DNA of 32,000 nucleotides from Pyrobaculum calidifontis JCM 11548 (GCF_000015805.1 NC_009073.1:1860001-1892000), one strand, 5' to 3'. Numbered from the stretch's first letter, positions 1-26,289 are shown. Numbers and translations are program-made. Notes: generated from the sequence alone by a model not told the origin.

Positions 1-996
1 GCGGAGGTGGACTTAAAAGCCTACAAAAAGGCCAAGGAAAGAGGAGAGAAATACGAAGTAAAGGCCAAAGTAAGGGGCAAAGTGAAGCGAGATAGAGGAG
101 ACAGGGGAATGCACTTTGCCGCATGCCCAGAGGCCGTCATGGTGAAAGAGGACGAATACCAAACCGACTTTATGCCAACGCCACTATTCCGAGTCAGAAA
201 CCTAGCTGGAGTCTATGGAATGTTTCAGATAGGACTGGCAGTAAACTATGAGAAGAGGTTTTCCTACGGACTCGCAATTCAAGAGGATATAAAAGACTTA
301 TTCAATGTCGGCGTTAAGATAGAGGGCTTATCATACGCGCTTGGCGCGATGTATTGGGGCAATAAGTTTACTGGCATTCCGGTCTCAGGCGGTAAAATGA
401 TCTACATTTTGACAAAGGGGAAGTATGAGGTGTATAGGATTGACTACTACGCGGGAGATGTCCGCGGATGCCTCATTATAGACCAGGACTGGCTCTACAG
501 AGTCTACCCCACGGCAGTACAAACCTCTGGTAATGAGATAATAATGGGCGACGCCTACATGACAGATGCAGATATTCAGATACCAGGGACGACGACAATC
601 TTTTACAAGAGATACACTGGCACTGGTTCGCCTAATGATAGCCCCATCTATGAAATACAGGTACCCCATCTGGCTGGATGGTTCTATCAGGAGTGCCCTG
701 GTATGTTAGACCGTGTTGAGGTCGGCGCGGGTGTTGACTTGGGTAAGCTGATATTGCGGAAGGCGGCTCAAGCTGGGAAAGTGGTTGCCGAGAGGTTTGC
801 CAAAGTCATTGAACTCGTCGGCGTTGATGTTGCCTGGACTTCTGGAACTAACTTTTTTGTAGTGTTGGGCGGGTTGCGGTTTGACGCCCCCTCTGGCAAG
901 CAGTTTGACTTGTACTTCTATACTACGCAGTACAAGGTGGAGATTCCTTGGTGCGGCCAAGTAGATCTGCCGTTTCTCTACGCGGAGTTTAGGTAG
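1..996 (+). CDS. hypothetical protein, no recognisable family; the frame is open to the window edge, so the 5' end may lie upstream (GTG at 7 is the first in-window start)
   Basis: 329-codon ORF in the track, followed 13 nt downstream by a T7 run. I recognise no motif. It is visibly more A/T-rich than the neighbouring genes (one hand-counted 60-nt line, 541-600, gave 29 G+C). Confidence 0.5.
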   Translation, partial: AEVDLKAYKKAKERGEKYEVKAKVRGKVKRDRGDRGMHFAACPEAVMVKEDEYQTDFMPTPLFRVRNLAGVYGMFQIGLAVNYEKRFSYGLAIQEDIKDLFNVGVKIEGLSYALGAMYWGNKFTGIPVSGGKMIYILTKGKYEVYRIDYYAGDVRGCLIIDQDWLYRVYPTAVQTSGNEIIMGDAYMTDADIQIPGTTTIFYKRYTGTGSPNDSPIYEIQVPHLAGWFYQECPGMLDRVEVGAGVDLGKLILRKAAQAGKVVAERFAKVIELVGVDVAWTSGTNFFVVLGGLRFDAPSGKQFDLYFYTTQYKVEIPWCGQVDLPFLYAEFR

Positions 997-5046: not shown

Positions 5047-6114
5047 TTGACCCACGGCAATACTGGAGGCGTGATTCGCATTGACGGATCGTACGGGGAG
5101 GGAGGCGGCCAAATTCTCCGGACTGCCATTGCACTGTCGGCACTTTTGGGAGTCCCGGTTGAGGTCTTCAATATTAGGGCGAAGCGGGCCAACCCAGGCC
5201 TACAGCCCCAGCACCTCACCGGCGTAAACGCCGCGGCTCTGTTGACAGACGCCGAGCTGGAGGGGGCGGCCAAGGGGTCCACTAGGCTGGTGTTTAAGCC
5301 CAAGACTATTAAGTGCGGCGGCTTTCAGATCGACATCGGCACGGCGGGTAGCATCTCGCTGGTTATTCAGACGTTGACTCCCATTGCCCTCTTCGCACCG
5401 TGCCCCGTGAGGCTGAGCATCACGGGGGGCACCGACGTGGCGTGGGCGCCGCCCATAGACTACATGAGGTTCGTCTTTGCGCCAGTGGTGGGGAGATTTG
5501 GCGGCCGGGTTAAGATCGAGGTGTTGAGGCGGGGGCACTACCCCAAGGGCGGCGGGCGCGTGGAGGTGGAGGTGGCGCCCGTGGACGTGCTAAAGCCCGT
5601 CGACGCGGTGGACTTTGGGAAAGTGTTGAAGATCCGCGGTATTTCGCATGCCGTCAATCTCCCGGCCCACGTGGCGGAGAGGCAGGCAAGGGCCGCGGCC
5701 GAGGCCTTGGCCAAGGAGGGGTACGCCGCCGACATCTCCACCGAGGTGAGAAACGACGGGCTGGGCCCCGGCTCTGGGGTCGTCCTGTGGGCCGAGTCAG
5801 ACGTGGGCAACGTGGTGGGGGGAGACGCCCTGGGCGAGAGGGGGAAGCCCGCGGAGGCCGTGGGGAGGGAGGCCGCCGAGAAGTTGCTCACGGCGCTTAA
5901 GTCGGGCGCCTCTGTGGACTCCCACATGGCCGACATGGCCGTGGTGTATATGGCCCTCGCAGAGGGCGTCAGCCGCATCACTACGCCGGAGCTCACCCTG
6001 CACCTCCAGACGAATATGTACATAGTGGAGCGCTTTCTCCCAGTCAAGTTTAGAGTGGAGAAGCTTGGCCAACGCCACTTGATCGAGGTCAACGGCGTGG
6101 GCCGCCGGCGCTAG
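5047..6114 (+). CDS. rtcA: RNA 3'-terminal phosphate cyclase
   Basis: [24 protein letters not shown].. and the C-terminal VDSHMADM (adenylylated His region) are RtcA hallmarks. The start is TTG at 5047 or GTG at 5071. Confidence 0.9.
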
Positions 6115-7157
6115 GCCCTCCTCCGAATCTCCCGCAGCTTCTCCAAGGCCAGCGGGACGTAGTACTTGTTCAACACGTAGTCCACCACCTCCCTTGTTCC
6201 GTGGCAGTTTAGCGTAGAGATGTGGGCCACTGGGTTGAACAACTCCCTGGCCTTCTCTAGCTCCTCCTGCGTGGCTATGTCCACCTTGTTTACCACAGCG
6301 ACTGTGGGGGCCTCAAAGCTCGTCTTAATCTCGTCGTAGAGCCTCTTCTGCATTTCTAAGCTGTAGCCGCTGTGGGGGGTGGGGTCCACGAGGAAGAGGA
6401 TCACGTTGGCCAAGTGGCGCAGGGCGAGCACGGCCTGCCGCTCAATGGCGTTGCGCTCGGCCAGCGGCCTGTCTAAGAGGCCCGGCGTGTCGACAATCTG
6501 GACCTTGTCCCCCTTTAGGATGATGTGGCCCAGGTGGATCTGCTTAGTTGTGAAGGGGTACTCAGCCACCTCGGGCTCCGCGGTGGACACGCACCTCACG
6601 AAGCTACTCTTCCCCACGTTGGGCGCCCCCGCGACGGCGATTGTGAAGAGCGTGGGGTCCACCGACGGTAGCTTTCTAAGGTAGATCACGACTTCTCTGA
6701 GCTTGTCGAGCTCCGGCGCCAAGTCCCTCAGTAGGTCTATAACTCTGGCTTGGTACATCTTCCTCGCCTTGTAGAGCTGGCTCTTGTCCGCCGCCGTCCT
6801 CACGGCCGTGATAGCCTCCTTGGCTATGGCTTTTATGGCGATGTGGGCGTTGCCCACCTTAGCCACCGCGTGTTTATACACCTGCGCGCCGTATACCACG
6901 TCTATGAGCTCTCTGTAGAAGGGGTGCAACTTGTCGAGAAAGGGCATTCTAAGCGCCATGTCCCTAAGAGTCGAGGCGAGAAGCTTGCCCGAGGTCACTA
7001 TCCGCCTAATCTCCAGCCTCTTCTGTTTCACAAAGGCGGGCTCAGCCGTGGAGCCCCTAGCCTCCTCTCGGGCATAGGCGGTGAGAAACATAGAGATGAG
7101 CTCGTCGGCGGTGTATATGTAGGGCAACTTGGCCTTATCCACGACCTCGAAAGACAC
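6111..7157 (-). CDS. NOG1-family GTP-binding protein (archaeal Nog1-like GTPase)
   Basis: G1 [10 protein letters not shown]3 DTPG and G4 NKVD motifs, preceded by the long helical N-terminal domain typical of NOG1. GTG start. Convergent 4-nt overlap with rtcA. Confidence 0.8.
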
Positions 7158-7176
7158 GAGGCGGATTGGGCACCGC

Positions 7177-7196
7177 TATATAAACGTATTTAAAAG
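7177..7196 (-). promoter_or_regulatory. TATA-rich element (TATATAAACGTATTTAAAAG) upstream of the NOG1-like gene
   Basis: TTTATATA on the minus strand is centred about 23 nt upstream of the GTG at 7157. The second box, ATTTAAAA, could also fire on the plus strand (see findings). Confidence 0.5.
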
Positions 7197-7458
7197 CCCT
7201 TTCCATGCGGTGAACTTCGGTAAGAAGATGTGTCTCAACTACCTCGACCCCGGCGTTCCAAATCCCTTGACCGCTACTTTACGCCCTCCCTTATAGGCTG
7301 GCATGTGTTATCACTCTATCTTACGCCTAACAGCCCTAGATTGGCGTTGGTAAGGTAGATGTATAGTACGCCGTTTTTGTCGTACTTTACCTCAATTCCC
7401 CTGTCCAATGGCTTGCGAACTTCAACACTTCTACTCTTTGTTTAAACGTCGTTGGGGT

Positions 7459-8384
7459 TTATTGCCGAAGTCGCTTTGCTGCGGCCGTGTACCACACCAC
7501 GAATACTACCGTGGCGATTATGATGAGAGGCGCCGTGGTCAAGAGGTAGTACGAATACCCCATTAAGCTTATAAGGACGCCGGCAATCAGCGGAGCGGGG
7601 ATCGAGGTTAAAGACTGGAGCGCCTCTATCGACGAGAATACAGTGAGAGTCTCTGCATCGCCCTTGGAGAAACCTCTTACAAATTTCTGAAAATTCGGGA
7701 TGTAAAGCGACGGCGATAGACTAAAGGCTAGTATGGCAACTCCAACAAGCGCGATTTTACCAACGTCGCTAGGCGCGTAGTATCCAAGCGAAAGAGACAA
7801 GTACCCCAAAGCTATAACGACGCTGGACAGCGCTATGAAGTGCACAGGCTTGTTCACCCTATCCGCCACCGCGCCCATAATGGGCGCGAGAATTAGAAAC
7901 CCAGCTTCAATTGCCGCAGTTGCTATGCCAGCGGGCAGAGGGCCCCCGAGAAGGTCCCAGAGGACGATCACCGAGTACACCGCCACGCCAGTTTCAAAGA
8001 AGGAGGTAACAACATCGTAGACAATTACGGGGTTAGAGACTATGGCCCGCAGTCTGCGGAGAGAGTCTCTTAAGCTACCAGCGACTTCTCCGGGACAACA
8101 ATGTTGACCAGGGATCTATTGAACGGCCTTAAACCCATATACAAGCCCGCAAACAGCGCCACAAATACGACGAGTTCAAGCGTCCCCCTAACGACAGTGA
8201 ACAACGGAAAGAGGACGGCCATGAGCACCGTCATGAGGGGCATCAGCAGGAACGACCTTGGCCCCGCCCTCAGAGACAGCGCAGTAGCCAGAGCCACGAC
8301 AACAAACGTCACCGCTTTCTCAAGCGAGTACGCCACCCCAATGACCTCTTCGCCAACTCCCCTCTCCCTCAACAACGCCGGCAA
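7459..8384 (-). pseudogene. MFS-type transporter remnant (frameshifted, internally deleted)
   Basis: There are two hydrophobic ORFs (8384-8070 and 7986-7459) in different frames. The downstream frame is open from about 8104. The N fragment carries a ..LSLRAGPRSFLL.. loop and the C fragment carries ..GAVADRVNKPVHF.. These resemble the MFS TM2-3 and TM8-9 'G-x-L-x-DR-x-G-R' loops. The segment expected between them (TM5-6) is absent. A TM1-like peptide (FPLVAVGVVVALLMYMALMTL*) sits in yet another frame at 8404-8469. Confidence 0.55.
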
Positions 8385-8507
8385 AAAACTAGAGAAGCCC
8401 TTGTAACTATAAAGTCATAAGAGCCATGTACATGAGGAGGGCTACTACCACGCCCACTGCCACCAAAGGGAATTATGAACGTATTTAAAAAGCCAGTAGT
8501 CTATGCC

Positions 8508-9284
8508 GTGGTCATAGCCCTGTTGACCGACTTCGGGACCAAGGACTACTTCGTGGCGGCGATGAAGGGGGTCATCCTCTCCATAAACCCCAACGCCGTG
8601 GTAGTAGACATAACCCACGAGGTGCCGCCGCAGGACGTGTGGACGGGGGCCTTCGTGCTCAAGTCCGTGTACAAGTGGTTTCCCCGAGGCACAATCTTCG
8701 TGGCAGTGGTGGACCCAGGCGTGGGAACCGAGAGGGCGCCCCTCCTGCTCCAGACAAGGAACTACTTCTTCGTAGGCCCAGACAACGGCGTACTCTCCCT
8801 AGCCGCCCAAGAGGACGGGGTAGTGGCGGCGTACCGCATTGAGGCGAGGCTCCCCAGGGTCTCTAGGACCTTCCACGGACGGGACGTGTTTGCCCCAGCG
8901 GCGGCCTACCTGTCGCTGGGCATTAGCCCCTCCATGCTGGGAGCGCCCATGGGCCAATGGAAGAGGCTAGAGGCGCCCCGCGCAGAGTACAGAGAAGGCG
9001 CGCTTTACGCCCACACGATCTACGTGGACAGATTTGGCAACGTCTACACCTCGGCCACCGAGGAGGACGTCAGACAGCTGGCGTCCCCCGGCGACGTCCT
9101 CTGCGTAGAGGGGCCGGCCACGATCAGGGCTCGGTACGTGGAGGCCTACGGCTACGCCTCGCCCGGGGAGACGGTGGCCCTGATAAACAGCGAGGGGTAC
9201 CTAGAGCTGGCCATCTCCATGGGAAACGCCGCGGCCACCTACGGCCTAAAGCCGGGGCAAGCGATAAAAATACGGAGGTGTTGA
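8508..9284 (+). CDS. SAM hydrolase / SAM-dependent halogenase family protein (DUF62)
   Basis: LLTDFGTKDYFVAAMKGV.., VVDPGVGTER, FVGPDNGVL and FHGRDVFAPAAAYL are DUF62 motifs. The ORF track starts at 8475, but a TATTTAAAA box at 8482-8490 lies inside that extension, about 22 nt before the in-frame GTG at 8508 (MVIALLTDFG). Confidence 0.85.
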   Translation: MVIALLTDFGTKDYFVAAMKGVILSINPNAVVVDITHEVPPQDVWTGAFVLKSVYKWFPRGTIFVAVVDPGVGTERAPLLLQTRNYFFVGPDNGVLSLAAQEDGVVAAYRIEARLPRVSRTFHGRDVFAPAAAYLSLGISPSMLGAPMGQWKRLEAPRAEYREGALYAHTIYVDRFGNVYTSATEEDVRQLASPGDVLCVEGPATIRARYVEAYGYASPGETVALINSEGYLELAISMGNAAATYGLKPGQAIKIRRC

Positions 9285-9534
9285 CGCACGTGATGACCTA
9301 GCGCCGCCGCACTGAGACGTGAGGACGGCCATCCTATCTGACCTTTGAAAACGCCCAGTAGTCCTTAGACAAGTTGTAGAGGTCGTAGGTGTAGGCTCCA
9401 GACCCGTGGTGGGCCACTGGCGTACGTGGAGTATTCATTGAAGCCCAGGCGGGCCTCTCTGCCCCAGAGAAAAGCTCTGTCGAGTTTAAATGTTTTCCAG
9501 CTAACAGTACCGAGTGCGGGAAGGGTAAAGAGAA

Positions 9535-9663
9535 GCCCCCTCCCAGCACGCCGGTTTCCCGGGCCCTCGCGGAGCCCAGTACTCCCGAGCGCGGCGCCGG
9601 CCTTAACTTCCGGGTTCTGATGAGACCGGGTGTAGCACCGGCGCCTATGGCCGGGTTAGGGGC
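9535..9663 (-). rRNA. rrf: 5S ribosomal RNA (stand-alone)
   Basis: The minus strand reads GCCCCTAACCCGGCCATAGGCGCCGG...CCCGGTCTCATCAGAACCCGGAAGTTAAGGCCGGCGCCGCG..GGGAGTACTGGG..GCGAGGGCCCGGGAAACCGGCGTGCTGGGAGGGGGC. The conserved 5S loop/helix motifs (GAACCCGGAAGTTAAG, GGGAGTACTGGG, CCGGGAAAC) are present and the 5' and 3' ends pair as helix I. A TATA box lies about 25 nt upstream and a T-rich tract follows. The ends are good to about +/-5 nt. Confidence 0.9.
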
Positions 9664-9683
9664 AGTACCCCTAATTGCTCTAG

Positions 9684-9691
9684 TTTATAAA
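9684..9691 (-). promoter_or_regulatory. TATA box (TTTATAAA) of the 5S rRNA gene
   Basis: Centred about 25 nt upstream of the inferred 5S 5' end. It overlaps the last codons and stop (AGT TTA TAA) of the upstream PaREP1-family gene. Confidence 0.6.
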
Positions 9692-10245
9692 CTTTTCTGG
9701 CCGGGGGTGGTGCTCGGCGTCGTCGCGGTCTGCCTTTTCAGTGTTCCACAGACGTTGTCGTAGAGTTCGCCTAGGTGTTCTGAGAACGGCTGTAGGAGGG
9801 CGCAGATGAGGTGGGCCGCCGTCTTGTCGTCTGGTATGTCCGTTAAAAGGCCCTCTGGGTCTGGCCCGTTGTACTGGTAGCGGTGTAGTTGGAGGGCTAT
9901 GGCCGTGTTTTTCACCACCTCAACGCCGGCGAATTTGGCCAACTCGGCGGCGATCTTGAACATGACAGAGGTGGGGGCTAGGGCTATTACCACGTCCACA
10001 TCCTCCACCTCCTCTTCCCCTGCCCTTATCTTGCGGGAGCCGGGGTAGATGGGCTTTAGCTTGTCTCTGTGCTCGGCGGCTAAGGCGCCTAGGTAGGCCT
10101 TCCACGCCTGAAAGGCCTTGCCGGCGGCGTTGCGGACGAGACCATCTTCCAAAAACTCTAGAGAAAGCCTAGCCTCCACGAGGGCCTCCCTGAGCCTGGC
10201 CTGTCTATAGGACTCAATGTCTTTCCAGGTCTTGGTAGGAAACAC
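9685..10245 (-). CDS. PaREP1/PaREP8-family protein
   Basis: 186 aa. ..YRQARLREALVEARLSLEFLEDGLVRNAAGKAFQAWKAYLGALA.. and ..ALQLHRYQYNGPDPEG.. match my memory of the Pyrobaculum PaREP1/PaREP8 repetitive family. Confidence 0.7.
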   Translation of the reverse strand: MFPTKTWKDIESYRQARLREALVEARLSLEFLEDGLVRNAAGKAFQAWKAYLGALAAEHRDKLKPIYPGSRKIRAGEEEVEDVDVVIALAPTSVMFKIAAELAKFAGVEVVKNTAIALQLHRYQYNGPDPEGLLTDIPDDKTAAHLICALLQPFSEHLGELYDNVCGTLKRQTATTPSTTPGQKSL

Positions 10246-10297
10246 GTAGTGTTGCGCGGCAGGGGAATATAACTTTTCAGCGGGGCTTGGCTGTTGG

Positions 10298-10945
10298 CTA
10301 TGGCGCGTTGGCTACTTTTACCGTGTCTATGAACTGGACTTTCATTTCTACGTTCCACGCCGTGGAGGGGGCTCCCCTTTGTATGGAGAACTTTCCTTCG
10401 GCCGCCAATACGCCGTCGCAGTACACATAGACGTAGTAGTCTGTGGCGGGGGCTTGGCTGATTGAGACGGAGCCGTCGGAGTCTGTTGGGGAGAAGATGT
10501 ACAGCCACCTGCCCCTCGTCGCGGCGTCTACCACCTTGGCCACACAGCCGGCCACGGGCTTCCCCGCGCCGTCTCTGATGGCTACTGTCACTGGGTATAC
10601 CCACGTCCGGATTCCCCACTGGGGTGACCCCAGCTCGATCGTGTCGCGGGTTACCGCGCTGTCGTAGATCCACACGACGTTGCCCCCGAGGACTTCGTAC
10701 AGCGAGGCGAATCCCCAGGCCACGCGGAGCGTGTAGCCGGGGCCCCAGGGCAGTGGGTAGAGCAGGCGCCCCGAGGTTATGTAGGAGAGGCCCACCACCG
10801 CGCCTCTTCCATCGTACACGACTGCGGTGCCTTCGGAGAGGGGCCTGCCGTTCCAGTCGAGCACCATGGCCCAAGTCGCCGATGCGAGGAGGAGGACGGC
10901 GGCGAGGAGCCTCACGCCTTTCTTTGCGCGTGTATTTAAATTCAT
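10298..10945 (-). CDS. hypothetical secreted protein (signal peptide, beta-rich)
   Basis: It contains (M/V)RLLAAVLLLASATWA, a signal-like segment. The TATA at 10932-10942 lies inside the first codons of the track ORF, so the real start is probably the GTG at 10915 (about 205 aa). I recognise no family. Confidence 0.6.
   Translation of the reverse strand: MNLNTRAKKGVRLLAAVLLLASATWAMVLDWNGRPLSEGTAVVYDGRGAVVGLSYITSGRLLYPLPWGPGYTLRVAWGFASLYEVLGGNVVWIYDSAVTRDTIELGSPQWGIRTWVYPVTVAIRDGAGKPVAGCVAKVVDAATRGRWLYIFSPTDSDGSVSISQAPATDYYVYVYCDGVLAAEGKFSIQRGAPSTAWNVEMKVQFIDTVKVANAP
10932..10942. promoter_or_regulatory. shared palindromic TATA (GTATTTAAATT) for the divergent 10298-10915 and 10960-11880 genes
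   Basis: ATTTAAAT is centred 22-23 nt from GTG 10915 (minus strand) and GTG 10960 (plus strand). Confidence 0.55.
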
Positions 10946-22467: not shown

Positions 22468-23216
22468 TACGGGCTAGCCTGCTCCATCACAATCTCACTG
22501 GGCAGTACTCTCGCACATTGCACACCCCTTGACCAGCGGCAGTCCACTGTGGCCAAAGCCGCCTGGTCCTCTCGGAGTCCACCAACCCCTTAATCATCTG
22601 TTCTCACTCCAGCCCCCCACCCCCCGGCCACGTCAAGGCTCAGCTTGACGATGTCGGCCAGGGGGTTCTCCTCGCCACGGCGGAACATTGCTCAAAACAG
22701 CCCTCTAATCTCGTCCAAGTAGCCCCCGTGAAGATCGACGTGCCGCTGTCCTTATTGGCCGCCTCCACTTTCTTCAACTCCACCTCTAAGTCAGCCGCTA
22801 CGACCGAGACAGGCGGAAGTACATACTTGCTCTACCGCAACGGCGGAAGATTTGTAATTGGGAAAGAGGAGGCCGCTAGCCTCAGCGAAGTTATATACGG
22901 CCTCGGCAGTGCGGCACAAGAAAACTGACCTATAGACGCTCAAGAGCTAAGCCGACGCGGAGCCGTGGCGAAGTTTCCCCAGCAATGTGGAAAAAGACAA
23001 AAGAGGCGAGGCCTGTGATGTCCACAGGTGATGTGGAAACCACCAAGCGTGTATTTGAGTAGCCAAAATGGCGAGAATTGTCGCGGCGGCAGATCATGGG
23101 CGCGTAGCATTAGGATAAGCCCATACGACAAGTCCAAGGTAGAGGAAATAGCAGATGAGAGCCGTAAGATGAGTGCCCTACTGCCAAAGTACGAAATAGG
23201 AAGAGGCGGAGAAGAG

Positions 23217-23328
23217 TGGTGGGCCGTAGGGGACTCTCAGGGGGTTCCCCCTTTTGAACCCCTGGCTTCCGCGCCGGCGGCTCTACGGGTCTGGAGCCCG
23301 CCGCTCTGCCTGGCTGAGCTAACGGCCC
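23217..23328 (-). tRNA. tRNA-Trp (anticodon CCA) with two putative non-canonical introns; CCA encoded
   Basis: The minus strand reads GGGCCGT TA GCTC AGCCAGGCA GAGC G GCGGG CTCCAGA CCCGT [21 nt = variable loop + ~16-nt insert] AGGGG TTCAAA[~19-nt insert containing GGGGGAACCCCC]T CCCCT ACGGCCC A CCA. The acceptor, D, anticodon and T stems all pair. The 112 nt split into about 74 mature, about 35 inserted and 3 for CCA. Confidence 0.8.
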
Positions 23329-23349: not shown

Positions 23350-23360
23350 TTAAAAGTTTA
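23350..23360 (-). promoter_or_regulatory. TATA box (AAACTTTTAAG) of tRNA-Trp
   Basis: Centred about 27 nt upstream of the tRNA 5' end (23328), in the 48-nt gap after the SWIM gene stop. Confidence 0.55.
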
Positions 23361-23376: not shown

Positions 23377-24015
23377 CTATGGCGCATCTCCGCGTTGGGC
23401 GTCTTGGAGGAGCGCCTTGGCTACCTTATAGCTTACTTTGACTCCCTGGAGCTTTACGGGGGCGTTGTCACATAGGATTTCCACCTCTGGCTCCGCCGAC
23501 ACGACGTAGACGGCGAATCTGCGCCTTTTCCCACAGTCGAGGATTGTGTCAGACTGCTCCAATGGCACAACGCGGTGCTCCAGCGCCCCCCTCACCTTTA
23601 CGTCTACGCACTCCACCTCCGCCGAGGCGAAGTAGACGGGGCGGTTTTCCACTGCCTCAACCGCCCTCTTGAAGCGGCGGTAGAGGAGGACGGAGGCCAC
23701 GTGTGTGCAAATGCCCCTCCGCCTCCTCCAGCCGAATGTGGAGTAGTAGCAAGTACACTCCCACCGCCCCTCCCTCGCGCTCCACCACACTTGGTAGAGC
23801 GGCTTCCAGTCTCCCAGCTCCCTCACCCCCTCCACGACGTAGAGGCCCTCCCTCACCTCGCGCACGTGGGGCAGTCTGAAGAGGGCCCTCTTGACCCACG
23901 ACCGGCTCTTTCCGGGGAAATCCCGCCTAAGCCTGTCGAGGGCGATGCGGAGGGGGTCGCCGTTGGGGCGTCTATTTTTGCCTGTGGTATAGCCTATGCG
24001 GCGGTTTCGAGGCAT
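23377..24015 (-). CDS. SWIM zinc-finger domain protein
   Basis: 212 aa. CTCYYSTFGWRRRRGICTH fits the SWIM CxC-x(n)-CxH signature. Its ATG overlaps the nuclease stop by 1 nt (TAATG). Confidence 0.7.
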   Translation of the reverse strand: MPRNRRIGYTTGKNRRPNGDPLRIALDRLRRDFPGKSRSWVKRALFRLPHVREVREGLYVVEGVRELGDWKPLYQVWWSAREGRWECTCYYSTFGWRRRRGICTHVASVLLYRRFKRAVEAVENRPVYFASAEVECVDVKVRGALEHRVVPLEQSDTILDCGKRRRFAVYVVSAEPEVEILCDNAPVKLQGVKVSYKVAKALLQDAQRGDAP

Positions 24016-24746
24016 TATCGCTTGGCTAATTTAGCTACGACAGCCGCCATTAGCAGTAGGGCCACGACTACGGCTAACAGTGCCAAGGCGTAGCCGCCGA
24101 AGGCTATGGCAGTTTCAGTTACCGTGGTAGTGGTGGTTACCGTGTACGTGACAGGCTCCTTTTGCGTTACCGTATGCGTAACCACCACTGTATCTGTCAC
24201 AGTTTTGGTGACCGTCACCGTGGCTGTGACTGTGTTTGTGGTCGCCACCGTAGTGGTGGAAGTCTGAGTTACTGTGACGGTGACGGGGGTTACGCTGGTC
24301 GTCGCCTTAGGCGCAGCGGCCTTGGGCAAGTAGAGGGGCCACGGCGGGTGGAACTCGTTGGGGTAGTCCACGTATGCGGCGTAGCCGCGCTCGACGAGCC
24401 ACTGGTTTACGTTCAGCCAATGCGTCTCGTTGTAGTCGAGGTACGCCACAGCGACGAAGCGTCCATATCTGTCGGTCTTGTACAAGTCGTCTATGTCTAG
24501 ACAGACCCGCCTCCCCAGGAGGAGGGCCTCAAGCGCCGCCTTGGCCCTCTGCCCCTCAGCAGTAGAGAGCTCGGGAGCGTCGACGTCGGCCAGCCTAACC
24601 CGCTCGGGCAAGCCAGACACATAGAACGTGTCCCCATCGACGACCCTAGTGACTACGCCGCAGTGCTCCTCAACTGCGCCAAACGTTGGGACTGCAAACA
24701 ACAGCGCAAGAGCGACAACAGCGGCAAACAAGCCCAACCTCAACAC
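24015..24746 (-). CDS. staphylococcal-nuclease-like thermonuclease with signal peptide, Thr/Val-rich stalk and C-terminal TM anchor
   Basis: Signal-like MLRLGLFAAVVALALLFAVPTFG. SNase core VVDGDTFYV...RVRLADVDAPE....DRYGRFVAVAYL. About 64 aa of T/V low complexity. C-terminal hydrophobic helix followed by KLAKR. Confidence 0.8.
   Translation of the reverse strand: MLRLGLFAAVVALALLFAVPTFGAVEEHCGVVTRVVDGDTFYVSGLPERVRLADVDAPELSTAEGQRAKAALEALLLGRRVCLDIDDLYKTDRYGRFVAVAYLDYNETHWLNVNQWLVERGYAAYVDYPNEFHPPWPLYLPKAAAPKATTSVTPVTVTVTQTSTTTVATTNTVTATVTVTKTVTDTVVVTHTVTQKEPVTYTVTTTTTVTETAIAFGGYALALLAVVVALLLMAAVVAKLAKR
24111..24302 (-). repeat. low-complexity Thr/Val-coding tract (ACC/GTN repeats)
   Basis: Encodes TTSVTPVTVTVTQTSTTTVATTNTVTATVTVTKTVTDTVVVTHTVTQKEPVTYTVTTTTTVTE. 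On the plus strand it appears as reiterated GTGAC/GGTNAC units. Confidence 0.8.
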
Positions 24747-24749
24747 ACC

Positions 24750-25694
24750 CTACTCTAGGCCAGCATCCGTGATGCGGTAGTCTATACGGACGTCCGGGGG
24801 CATGCCGGGGACGTCGAGAGGCCACATGTAGCCCTCCGCCTTGGCCTTATTCGGCCTAGCCATCATGAACCTGGCGTTTACCGCGTGCGCCAACACGTTT
24901 CCCCCGGCGGGCCTCTTGCCCACGGAAAAGGCCTCGGGGACGTCCATGACCTGGTTTGTGAGCACCGACGTTAGCCCAAACGTCCTGGCGTGTCTCCTCA
25001 GCCAATCCACGAGGTAGTGAATGCGTTGCTGTCTAGCCGCCAGCATCTCCCTCCCAACGAACTCGGCGCGGTACAGCGCAGTAATGGTGTCAATCACGGC
25101 GAGGCGGCAGCCCTCCGCTATGTGCCGTGGTAGGTCGAACTTGACGATTTGCTCAAGCTGAACCACGTTGGCCGGCTGATAAACGACGATTGCCTCTAAC
25201 GCCTTGTCGACGTCGAGGCCGAACCTCTTTGCCACTGCCTCGACAAGGCCGTCGTTGAACGTCCCCTCGGTGTCTATGTACACCACACGCGTCGTGAAGC
25301 CCTGCGCCAACGCCGCGACAGAGAGCTGGTGTGCCAGCATGGACTTGCCCGCGCCGAATTCCCCGGCGAATTCGTAGATGAAGGCTTCGCGGATGCCGCG
25401 CCAGGGAGTCTTCTCGTCGAATTCGGAGACTCCGGTCTTGAAAACGCGCCTCTGTTGCGAGCGGAGCTCCCTAGCCGTTAACGGCCTAGTCGTGCCGACG
25501 CGCTGAATTGCCTGTTGAAGGATTTTGACGGCGCGGTCGTACTCCACGCCAGCCTCCACCAGCTCCTCAACGGTGAACTCGGCCAAGTGCTCCACAGACG
25601 TAACCCCAAGCTCCCTAAGACGCTCAAGCGTCTTAGGGCCAACTCCCTCAAGCTCCTCTAGGGGGTCTCTTTCCCTCTTCTTGCTCATACCCAT
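24750..25694 (-). CDS. RadA/Rad51-family recombinase (N-terminal HhH domain + RecA core); either RadA itself or a divergent paralog
   Basis: The HhH region is LEELEGVGPKTLERLRELGVTSVEHLAEFTVEEL. Walker A is GEFGAGKS and Walker B is LAVIDT. ..ALYRAEFVGREMLAARQQ.. and ..TNQVM...GGNVLAHA.. parallel RadA. Several segments differ from the canonical archaeal RadA as I remember it (GEFGSGKTQ, ERGGL insert). TATA spacing favours the second ATG (25688). Confidence 0.75.
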   Translation of the reverse strand: MGMSKKRERDPLEELEGVGPKTLERLRELGVTSVEHLAEFTVEELVEAGVEYDRAVKILQQAIQRVGTTRPLTARELRSQQRRVFKTGVSEFDEKTPWRGIREAFIYEFAGEFGAGKSMLAHQLSVAALAQGFTTRVVYIDTEGTFNDGLVEAVAKRFGLDVDKALEAIVVYQPANVVQLEQIVKFDLPRHIAEGCRLAVIDTITALYRAEFVGREMLAARQQRIHYLVDWLRRHARTFGLTSVLTNQVMDVPEAFSVGKRPAGGNVLAHAVNARFMMARPNKAKAEGYMWPLDVPGMPPDVRIDYRITDAGLE

Positions 25695-25875
25695 ATCTCG
25701 TGGCCGGGTTTATACGTGTTAAGATAATGGGGCTTCCTAGTCTGTGTCTACGTATGTGGAAAGCCGTCTTATGGTTATTTTCGGCAACTTATGGGACTAG
25801 TCAATGGAACCGTCGTGTTCACGCCTCTGCGACATCTCACTTGAAGGCTGGCATTCCGCGAAGACCCCTGGGCAT

Positions 25876-26289
25876 TTACGGCTTCACGCCTATTCTCCTC
25901 GCCACTTCTTCCACTAGCCGGGCCACTCTCTCTATCGCCTTTTCCACTTGCTCTCTCTGGGCCCACCCCTCGTAGTAGTTTATGTGCATGGCGTTGGCCT
26001 GAGCCCACGCGTCGTGTACCCAGTCGCCGAGCTCCTCGGCCATCTTCTTGGCGTAGCGCCACAGCTCCCCGTGGGAGGCCAGCCTCTGGGAGTCCCGCCA
26101 ATAGGCGTAGGCCTTGACCGCCAGGGCCGCGGCCCCCCACGCCTTTTCGCTGGCCTGCCTGAGGTCCCCAGCCGCTAGCTCGGCCCTGGCCGCCTCAAGG
26201 AGGTCTAGGGCTGCCCTTGCATATTCCACAGCCCTCTGTGGAGGTCGGCGCCGCGGGTGAGCCAGTCCAGGAGGAGGTCCTCTAGGCAC
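25876..26289 (-). CDS. PaREP1-family helical domain protein (C-terminal portion of a split PaREP1 gene)
   Basis: ..AELAAGDLRQASEKAWGAAALAVKAYA....SHGELWRYA....WAQANAMHINYYEGW.. matches the PaREP1 domain pattern as I remember it. The first ~20 codons of the track ORF ([16 protein letters not shown]) look like out-of-frame sequence. An alternative start is the GTG at 26229. Confidence 0.7.
   Translation of the reverse strand: MPRGPPPGLAHPRRRPPQRAVEYARAALDLLEAARAELAAGDLRQASEKAWGAAALAVKAYAYWRDSQRLASHGELWRYAKKMAEELGDWVHDAWAQANAMHINYYEGWAQREQVEKAIERVARLVEEVARRIGVKP

Follow-up and report, generated by a model that had tools for sequence, protein, structure and literature searches.

A 32-kb window of the genome of the archaeon Pyrobaculum calidifontis JCM 11548 (GCF_000015805.1, NC_009073.1:1860001-1892000) contains three closely packed minus-strand genes beside a tRNA-Trp gene (Table 1; all coordinates are counted within this window). 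They encode a RadA-family recombinase, an SNase-family thermonuclease with a predicted membrane anchor, and a SWIM zinc-finger protein. The initial annotation of the sequence considered this combination unusual, and suggested that it could reflect a pathway of DNA processing or uptake and recombination, or else a module of defence or salvage. Do the three genes belong together as a functional unit, or did they become neighbors by other means? Comparison with related genomes suggests that the locus is probably a mosaic and not a three-part machine, with an ordinary radA followed by the decayed remnant of a Ted-type module, in which a nuclease gene has been substituted.

The linkage of the three genes is not conserved in the Thermoproteales. 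The order radA-SNase-SWIM was found only in the window and in two very close relatives, L032 (87% nucleotide identity over 3.5 kb) and L036 (the loci compared are designated by L numbers). It was absent from P. aerophilum, P. oguniense and Thermoproteus, and from loci L006, L007 and L012. The gene following radA encodes a β-lactamase-fold protein in P. aerophilum, is a convergent methyltransferase gene in Thermoproteus, and is another, unrelated gene in P. oguniense and L007.

Comparison with L006 delimits the difference. The RadA of L006 is 96% identical to that of the window, and the two loci are collinear on both sides. In blastn, homology breaks off exactly at the stop codon of radA and starts again at 23958, corresponding to codon 20 of the SWIM gene. 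In place of the intervening segment, L006 contains a 325-nt spacer and a gene for a 299-aa P-loop ATPase, and no nuclease gene. Pairs of ATPase and SWIM genes with overlapping stop and start codons recur in L008, L009, L010, L012, L016, L021 and L028, and this wide conservation suggests that the ATPase-SWIM pair is the older state and that the nuclease gene replaced the ATPase gene. Synonymous divergence (dS) between the window and L032 is also uneven (0.98 for radA, 0.44 for the SWIM gene and 0.23 for the nuclease gene), which suggests that the downstream genes were exchanged more recently than radA. In P. aerophilum, tRNA-Trp lies 2.1 kb from radA, with different genes between them. Because its contents differ among P. 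aerophilum, L006 and the window, the interval from radA to tRNA-Trp appears to be a variable slot.

The relatives of the SWIM gene indicate what this slot may once have contained. The Ted system, comprising TedA, TedB and TedC, carries out the exchange of DNA in Thermoproteales and resembles a type IV secretion system (Beltran et al. 2023, PMC9905601). Ted loci were described as containing VirB4-like, ParA-like and HerA-like genes and, in Pyrobaculum and Vulcanisaeta, a "rad50 recombinase", which is proposed to coat single-stranded DNA (ssDNA) and to start strand invasion (PMC9905601). A term search of the main text of the same paper found no mention of SWIM, the small ATPase, the PIN-like protein described below or RadA.

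SWIM genes occur in clusters of a similar kind. In L008 (P. ferrireducens), L009, L016 (P. oguniense), L021 and L028, the genes are arranged in the order ParA-like ATPase, small protein, HerA/VirB4-like ATPase of 650-670 aa, two proteins of ~250 aa, ATPase of ~300 aa, SWIM and a 136-aa protein, followed, where the contig reaches (L008, L009 and L016), by a RadA-family gene of the clade termed B below. The ~300-aa ATPase is HerA/FtsK-like (Walker A TGLPGSGKT, Walker B IDEAHRF), and its gene overlaps the SWIM gene in nearly all loci. The L016 cluster continues with a 156-aa protein matching PDB 8DFT (E 3e-9), which we take to be the TedC pilin of Pyrobaculum calidifontis, and with a protein containing six predicted transmembrane (TM) helices.

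A related arrangement is present in L012, from a Pyrobaculum metagenome-assembled genome (MAG). Here a run of mostly overlapping genes (6154-10936) is led by a clade-A radA, 72% identical to that of the window, which overlaps the next gene and is followed by genes for a 174-aa membrane protein, the ~300-aa ATPase, SWIM, a TedC homolog and a TedA-like protein. The open reading frame (ORF) directly after SWIM matches 8DFT over the whole mature pilin (E 3e-24). The same block of TM protein, ATPase, SWIM, TedC and TedA is found within a full cluster in L010 and L011 (Thermoproteus). L016 contains genes of the TedA, TedB and TedC kinds, and L012, L010 and L011 contain those of TedC and TedA. Because of the TedC homolog, the six-TM protein, and the VirB4/HerA-like and ParA-like ATPases, the SWIM-bearing clusters can be regarded as Ted-type loci. 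They differ from the Ted system in that the clusters seen here are often multi-copy, suiting mobile elements better than a single domesticated system.

Of such a locus, with its TedC pilin, TedA channel and TedB ATPase, only the SWIM gene remains in the window. A tblastn search of the window with the VirB4/HerA-like ATPase and other cluster proteins of L009 matched only radA, the SNase gene and the SWIM gene, and the TedC and TedA homologs of L012 and L016 gave no match in the 32 kb.

Two further features of the clusters were recorded. The 136-aa protein beside SWIM (L009:6581-6991 and homologs) contains PIN-like acidic motifs (YVDVFS, DAWHESH and VVTRDYDA), and gave no Pfam or PDB match; PDB searches with the cluster proteins p136, p259 and the small ATPase (as profiles), and p108 and p147 (as single sequences), gave nothing usable. 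A 4857-aa ORF lies directly after the TedC and TedA-like genes in a Thermoproteus MAG (L010:8004-12576, L011:5647-10219).

The window radA is, by its sequence, most likely the housekeeping-type RadA of Pyrobaculum and Thermoproteus. The protein matches Pfam Rad51 (E 3.7e-38, aa 85-312) and HHH_5 (E 3.1e-7, aa 12-61), and can be aligned over its full length with the RadA proteins of Pyrococcus and Sulfolobus, with GEFGAGKS and LAVIDT located at the RadA motifs. The RadA layout is present, with a helix-hairpin-helix (HhH) domain at the N terminus and, after it, a Rad51-type ATPase core containing Walker A and B. The initial annotation had noted a deviation from canonical RadA. This is correct, since the protein scores below the cut-offs of the NCBIfam archaeal RadA equivalog models NF003301 / TIGR02236 (192.9 vs 259 bits, 169.7 vs 361 bits), but the deviation is common to the Thermoproteales RadAs and not peculiar to this gene. 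RadB models gave 51-77 bits, far under their cut-offs.

A neighbor-joining tree was constructed with Sulfolobus and Pyrococcus RadA as outgroups, relative to which all Thermoproteales RadAs formed one group. Clade A, containing the sequences from the window, P. aerophilum, P. oguniense and Thermoproteus, tracks the Pyrobaculum/Thermoproteus split. Its sister is clade B, with ~48% identity to the window RadA, and clade C (Caldivirga and Vulcanisaeta) lies outside A and B. NCBIfam RadA scores were 185-196 bits for clade A, 155-162 for clade C and 109-120 for clade B. Because every Thermoproteales RadA tested falls under the cut-off of 259 bits, with clade A scoring highest, the models appear to under-represent the Thermoproteales. 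The alignment showed that GEFGAGKS, and GGN in place of GGH, are found in all three clades. In each of them the FxxA polymerization motif also lacks its Phe, with Pro, Ala or Val instead (PLTA at aa ~72-76 in the window protein, versus FMRA in Pyrococcus and FKTA in Sulfolobus).

The clades differ in their N-terminal domains and surroundings. The GVGP hairpins of the HhH domain are retained in clade A and degenerate in clade B, in which the ATPase core is intact. The complete genomes examined (P. aerophilum, P. oguniense and Thermoproteus) all have their clade-A radA in ordinary chromosomal surroundings, and radA is under very strong purifying selection, with a ratio of nonsynonymous to synonymous divergence (dN/dS) of ~0.03. 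Clade-B genes are full length, always located within Ted-like clusters, and multi-copy; a single 90% cluster contains at least five full-length sequences from Pyrobaculum sp. 3827-6, located on five contigs, and two copies occur in P. ferrireducens. They are often mislabeled by NCBI as "Fis family transcriptional regulator". Strand invasion is the role of RadA and Rad51. Because the Ted paper assigns this role to its "rad50 recombinase", we suspect that the latter is the clade-B RadA paralog.

RadB and aRadC are RadA paralogs in which the N-domain is wholly absent. The window RadA is unlike them, being full length with the HhH domain kept. Clade B resembles them as a RadA-derived paralog with an intact ATPase core, and differs in being full length with a degenerate N-domain. 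A literature search found nothing on Thermoproteales RadA paralogs or archaeal SWIM-RadA links.

The housekeeping assignment follows from the placement in clade A, the retained HhH domain, the highest scores among the clades in the RadA models, the ordinary contexts and the low dN/dS. It could be argued instead that the gene is a specialized paralog serving its neighbors, with a separate canonical radA elsewhere in the genome, as its sub-threshold NCBIfam scores, the missing Phe of FxxA, the GGN for GGH and the clade-A gene inside the Ted-like operon of L012 might suggest. We consider this highly unlikely, because these deviations are common to all Thermoproteales RadAs tested, among which clade A scores highest, clade A is found in ordinary contexts in every complete genome examined, all Thermoproteales RadAs form one group against those of Sulfolobus and Pyrococcus, and selection on radA is very strong. 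The initial annotation had called for a phylogeny to separate a housekeeping radA from a paralog, and would have taken the packing as fortuitous if the gene were the sole canonical radA and the linkage were missing from related genomes. The tree favors the housekeeping gene, and the linkage is missing beyond the very close relatives L032 and L036, which comes near to that outcome.

The SWIM protein carries the zinc-finger signature that was initially annotated. Its Cys and His residues are invariant in 42 homologs, although the Pfam SWIM score (PF04434) is 16.5 bits (E 0.0063), under the gathering cut-off of 19.6. The family is confined to Thermoproteales, with 222 proteins in a set of 5.8 billion sequences. 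An exhaustive profile search returned 177 representatives, ~10 of them full length, while many shorter ones match the N-terminal ~105 residues only. Scanning of one genome per species gave 20 loci, and certain genomes carried two or three of them (two in P. oguniense, three in V. distributa). The dN/dS of 0.09-0.12 indicates purifying selection in ATPase-type and nuclease-type loci alike. In an AF2 model (pLDDT 80.6), the zinc site lies in an N-terminal part made of helices and β structure; a long helix and a C-terminal domain rich in β structure make up the rest. The model had no Foldseek match in the PDB (E <= 0.001) or BFVD. The family profile had no sequence match in the PDB, and no match was found in plasmid, phage and IMG/VR collections. 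In L032, the SWIM gene (2278-2910) has an in-frame stop at codon 177, which may represent decay of an orphan gene or a sequencing error.

Of the ~21 loci whose flanks could be used, 11 have a RadA-family gene within ~5 kb of SWIM, and at least five arrangements occur among them. Clade-A genes lie upstream and co-directional in the window, L006, L032, L036 and L012; clade-B genes lie downstream in L008, L009 and L016, and a clade-C gene lies downstream in L024 (Caldivirga). The RadA-family gene is upstream in L025 (clade C, opposite strand) and L027 (Vulcanisaeta), and convergent in L026. Several metagenome contigs also seem to carry clade-B RadA and SWIM together, as matches to the two came from contigs of identical length. 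If a 2-Mb genome carries between one and a few radA genes, a locus would show such proximity by chance in ~1% of cases. Although the loci are not independent, their varied arrangements argue against chance and suggest that the association is real. Drawn from gene neighborhood, it could represent a functional partnership or shared residence in Ted-like clusters. Judging from these neighbors, SWIM would be a cytoplasmic zinc-finger protein whose partners are RadA-family proteins and Ted ATPases; it may be an adaptor that binds DNA or protein, and at the present locus it may act with partners encoded elsewhere.

The association recalls the eukaryotic Shu complex, in which the SWIM protein Shu2/SWS1, with the extended motif CxC..CxHxxA, works with Rad51 paralogs. 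Both cases involve a small SWIM zinc-finger protein associated with RecA/Rad51-family proteins, and most members of the archaeal family have CTHVAA (CxHxAA), which fits the extended motif. The window protein departs from it, with CTHVAS and thus Ser at +3. The archaeal association also differs in being genomic, and in that the usual direct neighbor is the HerA/FtsK-like ATPase, not a Rad51 paralog. Homology to Shu2/SWS1 was considered and dropped, as Foldseek and the PDB profile search gave no match. Since no sequence or fold similarity was detected, the likeness is one of functional analogy only.

The nuclease belongs to the SNase family, scoring 44.5 bits against Pfam SNase (PF00565; gathering cut-off 21) and retaining the catalytic and Ca-binding residues (D39, R51, D56, E59, Y94 and R96, aligned with staphylococcal D21, R35, D40, E43, Y85 and R87). 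Pfam, alignment and hydropathy agree with the initially annotated layout of signal peptide, SNase core, Thr/Val stalk and C-terminal TM anchor. The stalk region contains 32 Thr and 16 Val in 70 aa, and no tandem repeats were found in it. From hydropathy and composition, with hydrophobic segments at both ends, the protein is predicted to be exported and membrane-anchored, held by the C-terminal helix on the Thr-rich, presumably glycosylated stalk. With staphylococcal-type thermonucleases, including surface-anchored ones, it shares the SNase fold and the Asp, Glu and Arg residues of the catalytic site, and it resembles them in its predicted signal peptide and membrane anchor. It differs from them in its ~65-aa Thr/Val-rich stalk and in that the predicted anchor is C-terminal and not N-terminal.

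Close homologs of the nuclease are mostly on Pyrobaculum-like metagenome contigs, and remoter ones occur in other Thermoprotei, such as Pyrolobus. Stand-alone homologs lie in unrelated contexts in L033 (90% nucleotide identity over the nuclease core) and L034 (72%). The window nuclease most likely degrades extracellular DNA, as the stand-alone homologs presumably do.

The packing of the three genes is as initially annotated. The radA stop TAG (24752..24750) is followed by GGT and then by the GTG of the nuclease gene, a gap of 3 nt, and the nuclease TAA overlaps the SWIM ATG by one base (TAATG). The single TATA element upstream of radA was also found; it is the only one before the three genes, and an A/T-run scan of the minus strand, with five runs of at least 6 nt in 2.7 kb, found nothing comparable before the nuclease gene. 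Given this spacing and the lack of an internal TATA, co-transcription of the three genes is plausible. TATAAA lies ~24 nt ahead of the second ATG of radA (25688), a spacing that fits a leaderless mRNA starting there, and gene callers start radA at this ATG in L032 and L036 (312 aa). A scan of the window for bacterial-type promoters and terminators was uninformative for an archaeon.

Table 1. Coordinates of the features of the radA-SNase-SWIM locus within the 32-kb window (aa positions refer to the nuclease protein)
Feature	Position	Strand	Details and basis
radA	24750..25694	-	314-aa ORF; annotated start 25694, probable start 25688 (second ATG)
SNase gene	24015..24746	-	243 aa, GTG start
SWIM gene	23377..24015	-	212 aa
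SWIM motif CxCx13CxH	23701..23757	-	C87, C89, C103, H105; alignment and Pfam
Swapped segment	23959..24749	-	Nuclease gene and first 19 SWIM codons; blastn against L006
TATA box TATAAA of the radA transcription unit	25709..25714	-	Sole TATA-like hexamer 5' of the three genes
tRNA-Trp (CCA)	23217..23328	-	Two introns, encoded CCA end; Rfam and by eye
TATA-like TTTTAA of the tRNA gene	23350..23355	-	~24 nt upstream of tRNA position 1
Nuclease, hydrophobic signal	aa 1-24		
Nuclease, core	aa 31-134		
Nuclease, stalk	aa ~146-212		
Nuclease, predicted C-terminal TM helix	aa 214-240		

These results suggest the following history. The radA product would be a normal strand-exchange recombinase, its gene being transcribed from the single TATA element, probably as a leaderless mRNA. 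In an earlier state, the interval between radA and tRNA-Trp would have held part of a Ted-type module, as it still does in relatives, with a full radA-led module in L012, ATPase and SWIM only in L006, and SWIM only in the window, where the nuclease stands for the ATPase. In the window lineage, the ATPase gene, the spacer contents and the first 19 SWIM codons would have been replaced by a thermonuclease gene circulating among related strains. Progressive loss and substitution of a radA-adjacent Ted module is the simplest ordering of these states that we can infer. Several points weigh against it. The tight spacing and the lack of an internal promoter, kept in three assemblies, are compatible with selection for co-expression, and the SWIM gene is still under purifying selection beside the nuclease gene, so that a functional tie among the three genes is possible. 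The distribution of the arrangements, rather than a rooted history, suggests the direction of the swap. Outside the 32-kb window there might be a further radA of more canonical type, and the clade-A radA within the Ted-like operon of L012 blurs the distinction between housekeeping and Ted-associated genes.

A serious rival, because Ted-like clusters are multi-copy, is that a mobile, Ted-like integrative element inserted at tRNA-Trp and left the nuclease and SWIM genes there as cargo or debris. They would then adjoin radA by accident, and SWIM would have no functional tie to the chromosomal RadA. The patchy, multi-copy distribution of clusters with SWIM and clade-B radA (P. oguniense, V. distributa and Pyrobaculum sp. 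3827-6), the changing contents of the interval in P. aerophilum, L006 and the window, and the lower dS of the downstream genes would all suit such an element. However, neither an integrase gene nor att-like direct repeats around the tRNA were found in the window, and known plasmids, phages and viral contigs gave no match. Accident would also hardly account for RadA-family genes of clades A, B and C near SWIM in about half of the usable loci and in so many arrangements, or for the overlap of radA with the next module gene in L012. On balance we regard this explanation as unlikely. A working module of DNA uptake and recombination, the nuclease having been recruited into a Ted-derived operon, seems to us quite improbable. 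Its surface nuclease would cut or resect incoming DNA, SWIM would hand it on and RadA would recombine it, and surface nucleases such as EndA and NucA do take part in DNA uptake by naturally competent bacteria. The operon-like packing behind one promoter in three assemblies, purifying selection on all three genes, and the SWIM relatives in Ted DNA-exchange clusters with RadA paralogs fit this proposal. The linkage, however, does not extend past very close relatives, members of this nuclease family occur by themselves in other contexts, and the SWIM gene of L032 has an in-frame stop. No gene for a pilin, channel or transfer ATPase was detected by tblastn in the 32-kb window, and the nuclease replaced the conserved ATPase partner of SWIM instead of joining it. 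Of the uptake and recombination pathway proposed initially, the connection of the SWIM family with DNA exchange and RadA paralogs thus survives, including the operon of L012, whereas a dedicated three-gene pathway finds no support.

A bolder extension, which we put forward as a long shot, is that SWIM and the small ATPase are undescribed Ted components coupling transferred ssDNA to RadA-family recombinases. Some Pyrobaculum would have a radA-led Ted operon, and in the window lineage the ATPase would have given way to a recruited surface nuclease, so that foreign DNA would be taken up and recombined with the help of the nuclease. SWIM and the ATPase would then be an archaeal functional counterpart of the mediators formed by SWIM proteins and Rad51 paralogs.

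Under the favored mosaic interpretation, the locus itself is of modest interest, as its genes are all of known families and came to be packed together recently, at the level of strains. It is valuable in pointing to SWIM, the ~300-aa ATPase, the PIN-like protein and the full-length RadA paralog, which are conserved and previously unremarked members of Ted-type clusters. As these organisms are not genetically tractable, a list of candidate proteins for handing imported DNA to the archaeal recombination machinery is useful. The RadA models used in annotation, moreover, miss the whole order Thermoproteales.

The suggestion of a defence module was dropped. Neither the nuclease nor SWIM was matched by PADLOC. 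Weak and partial matches to "mad8" were obtained with the window radA (E 5.5e-6, around the P-loop), the small ATPase of L006 and the large ATPase of L009. The large ATPase also gave HerA matches.

The tRNA-Trp gene, initially annotated as lying beside the three genes, follows the SWIM gene on the minus strand and has the anticodon CCA. The Rfam tRNA model matched 23321..23239 with 23.1 bits, below the gathering score, and with two insertions; by eye, these introns lie after the anticodon loop and in the T-loop. ARAGORN, run on the window and 21 loci, misses this intron-containing tRNA. Its 5' half is 96% identical to the P. aerophilum sequence located 2.1 kb from radA.

Several differences and similarities were also seen in the flanks. 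A PaREP1/HEPN-like gene lies directly upstream of radA in the window (25876-26289, minus strand), and likewise in L006 and L036; in P. aerophilum a PaREP1 gene is also found between radA and tRNA-Trp. L006 contains thiC (5157-6452) between the tRNA-Trp region and the Nitro_FeMo-Co gene, where the window has none (22618-22792, compared with L006:4553-6285). An sRNA specific to Pyrobaculum, away from the locus, assigns the window to this genus. Elsewhere in the window, the Pyrobaculum H/ACA-like sRNA 208 (9408-9466, minus strand) adjoins the 5S rRNA gene (9538-9658, minus strand).

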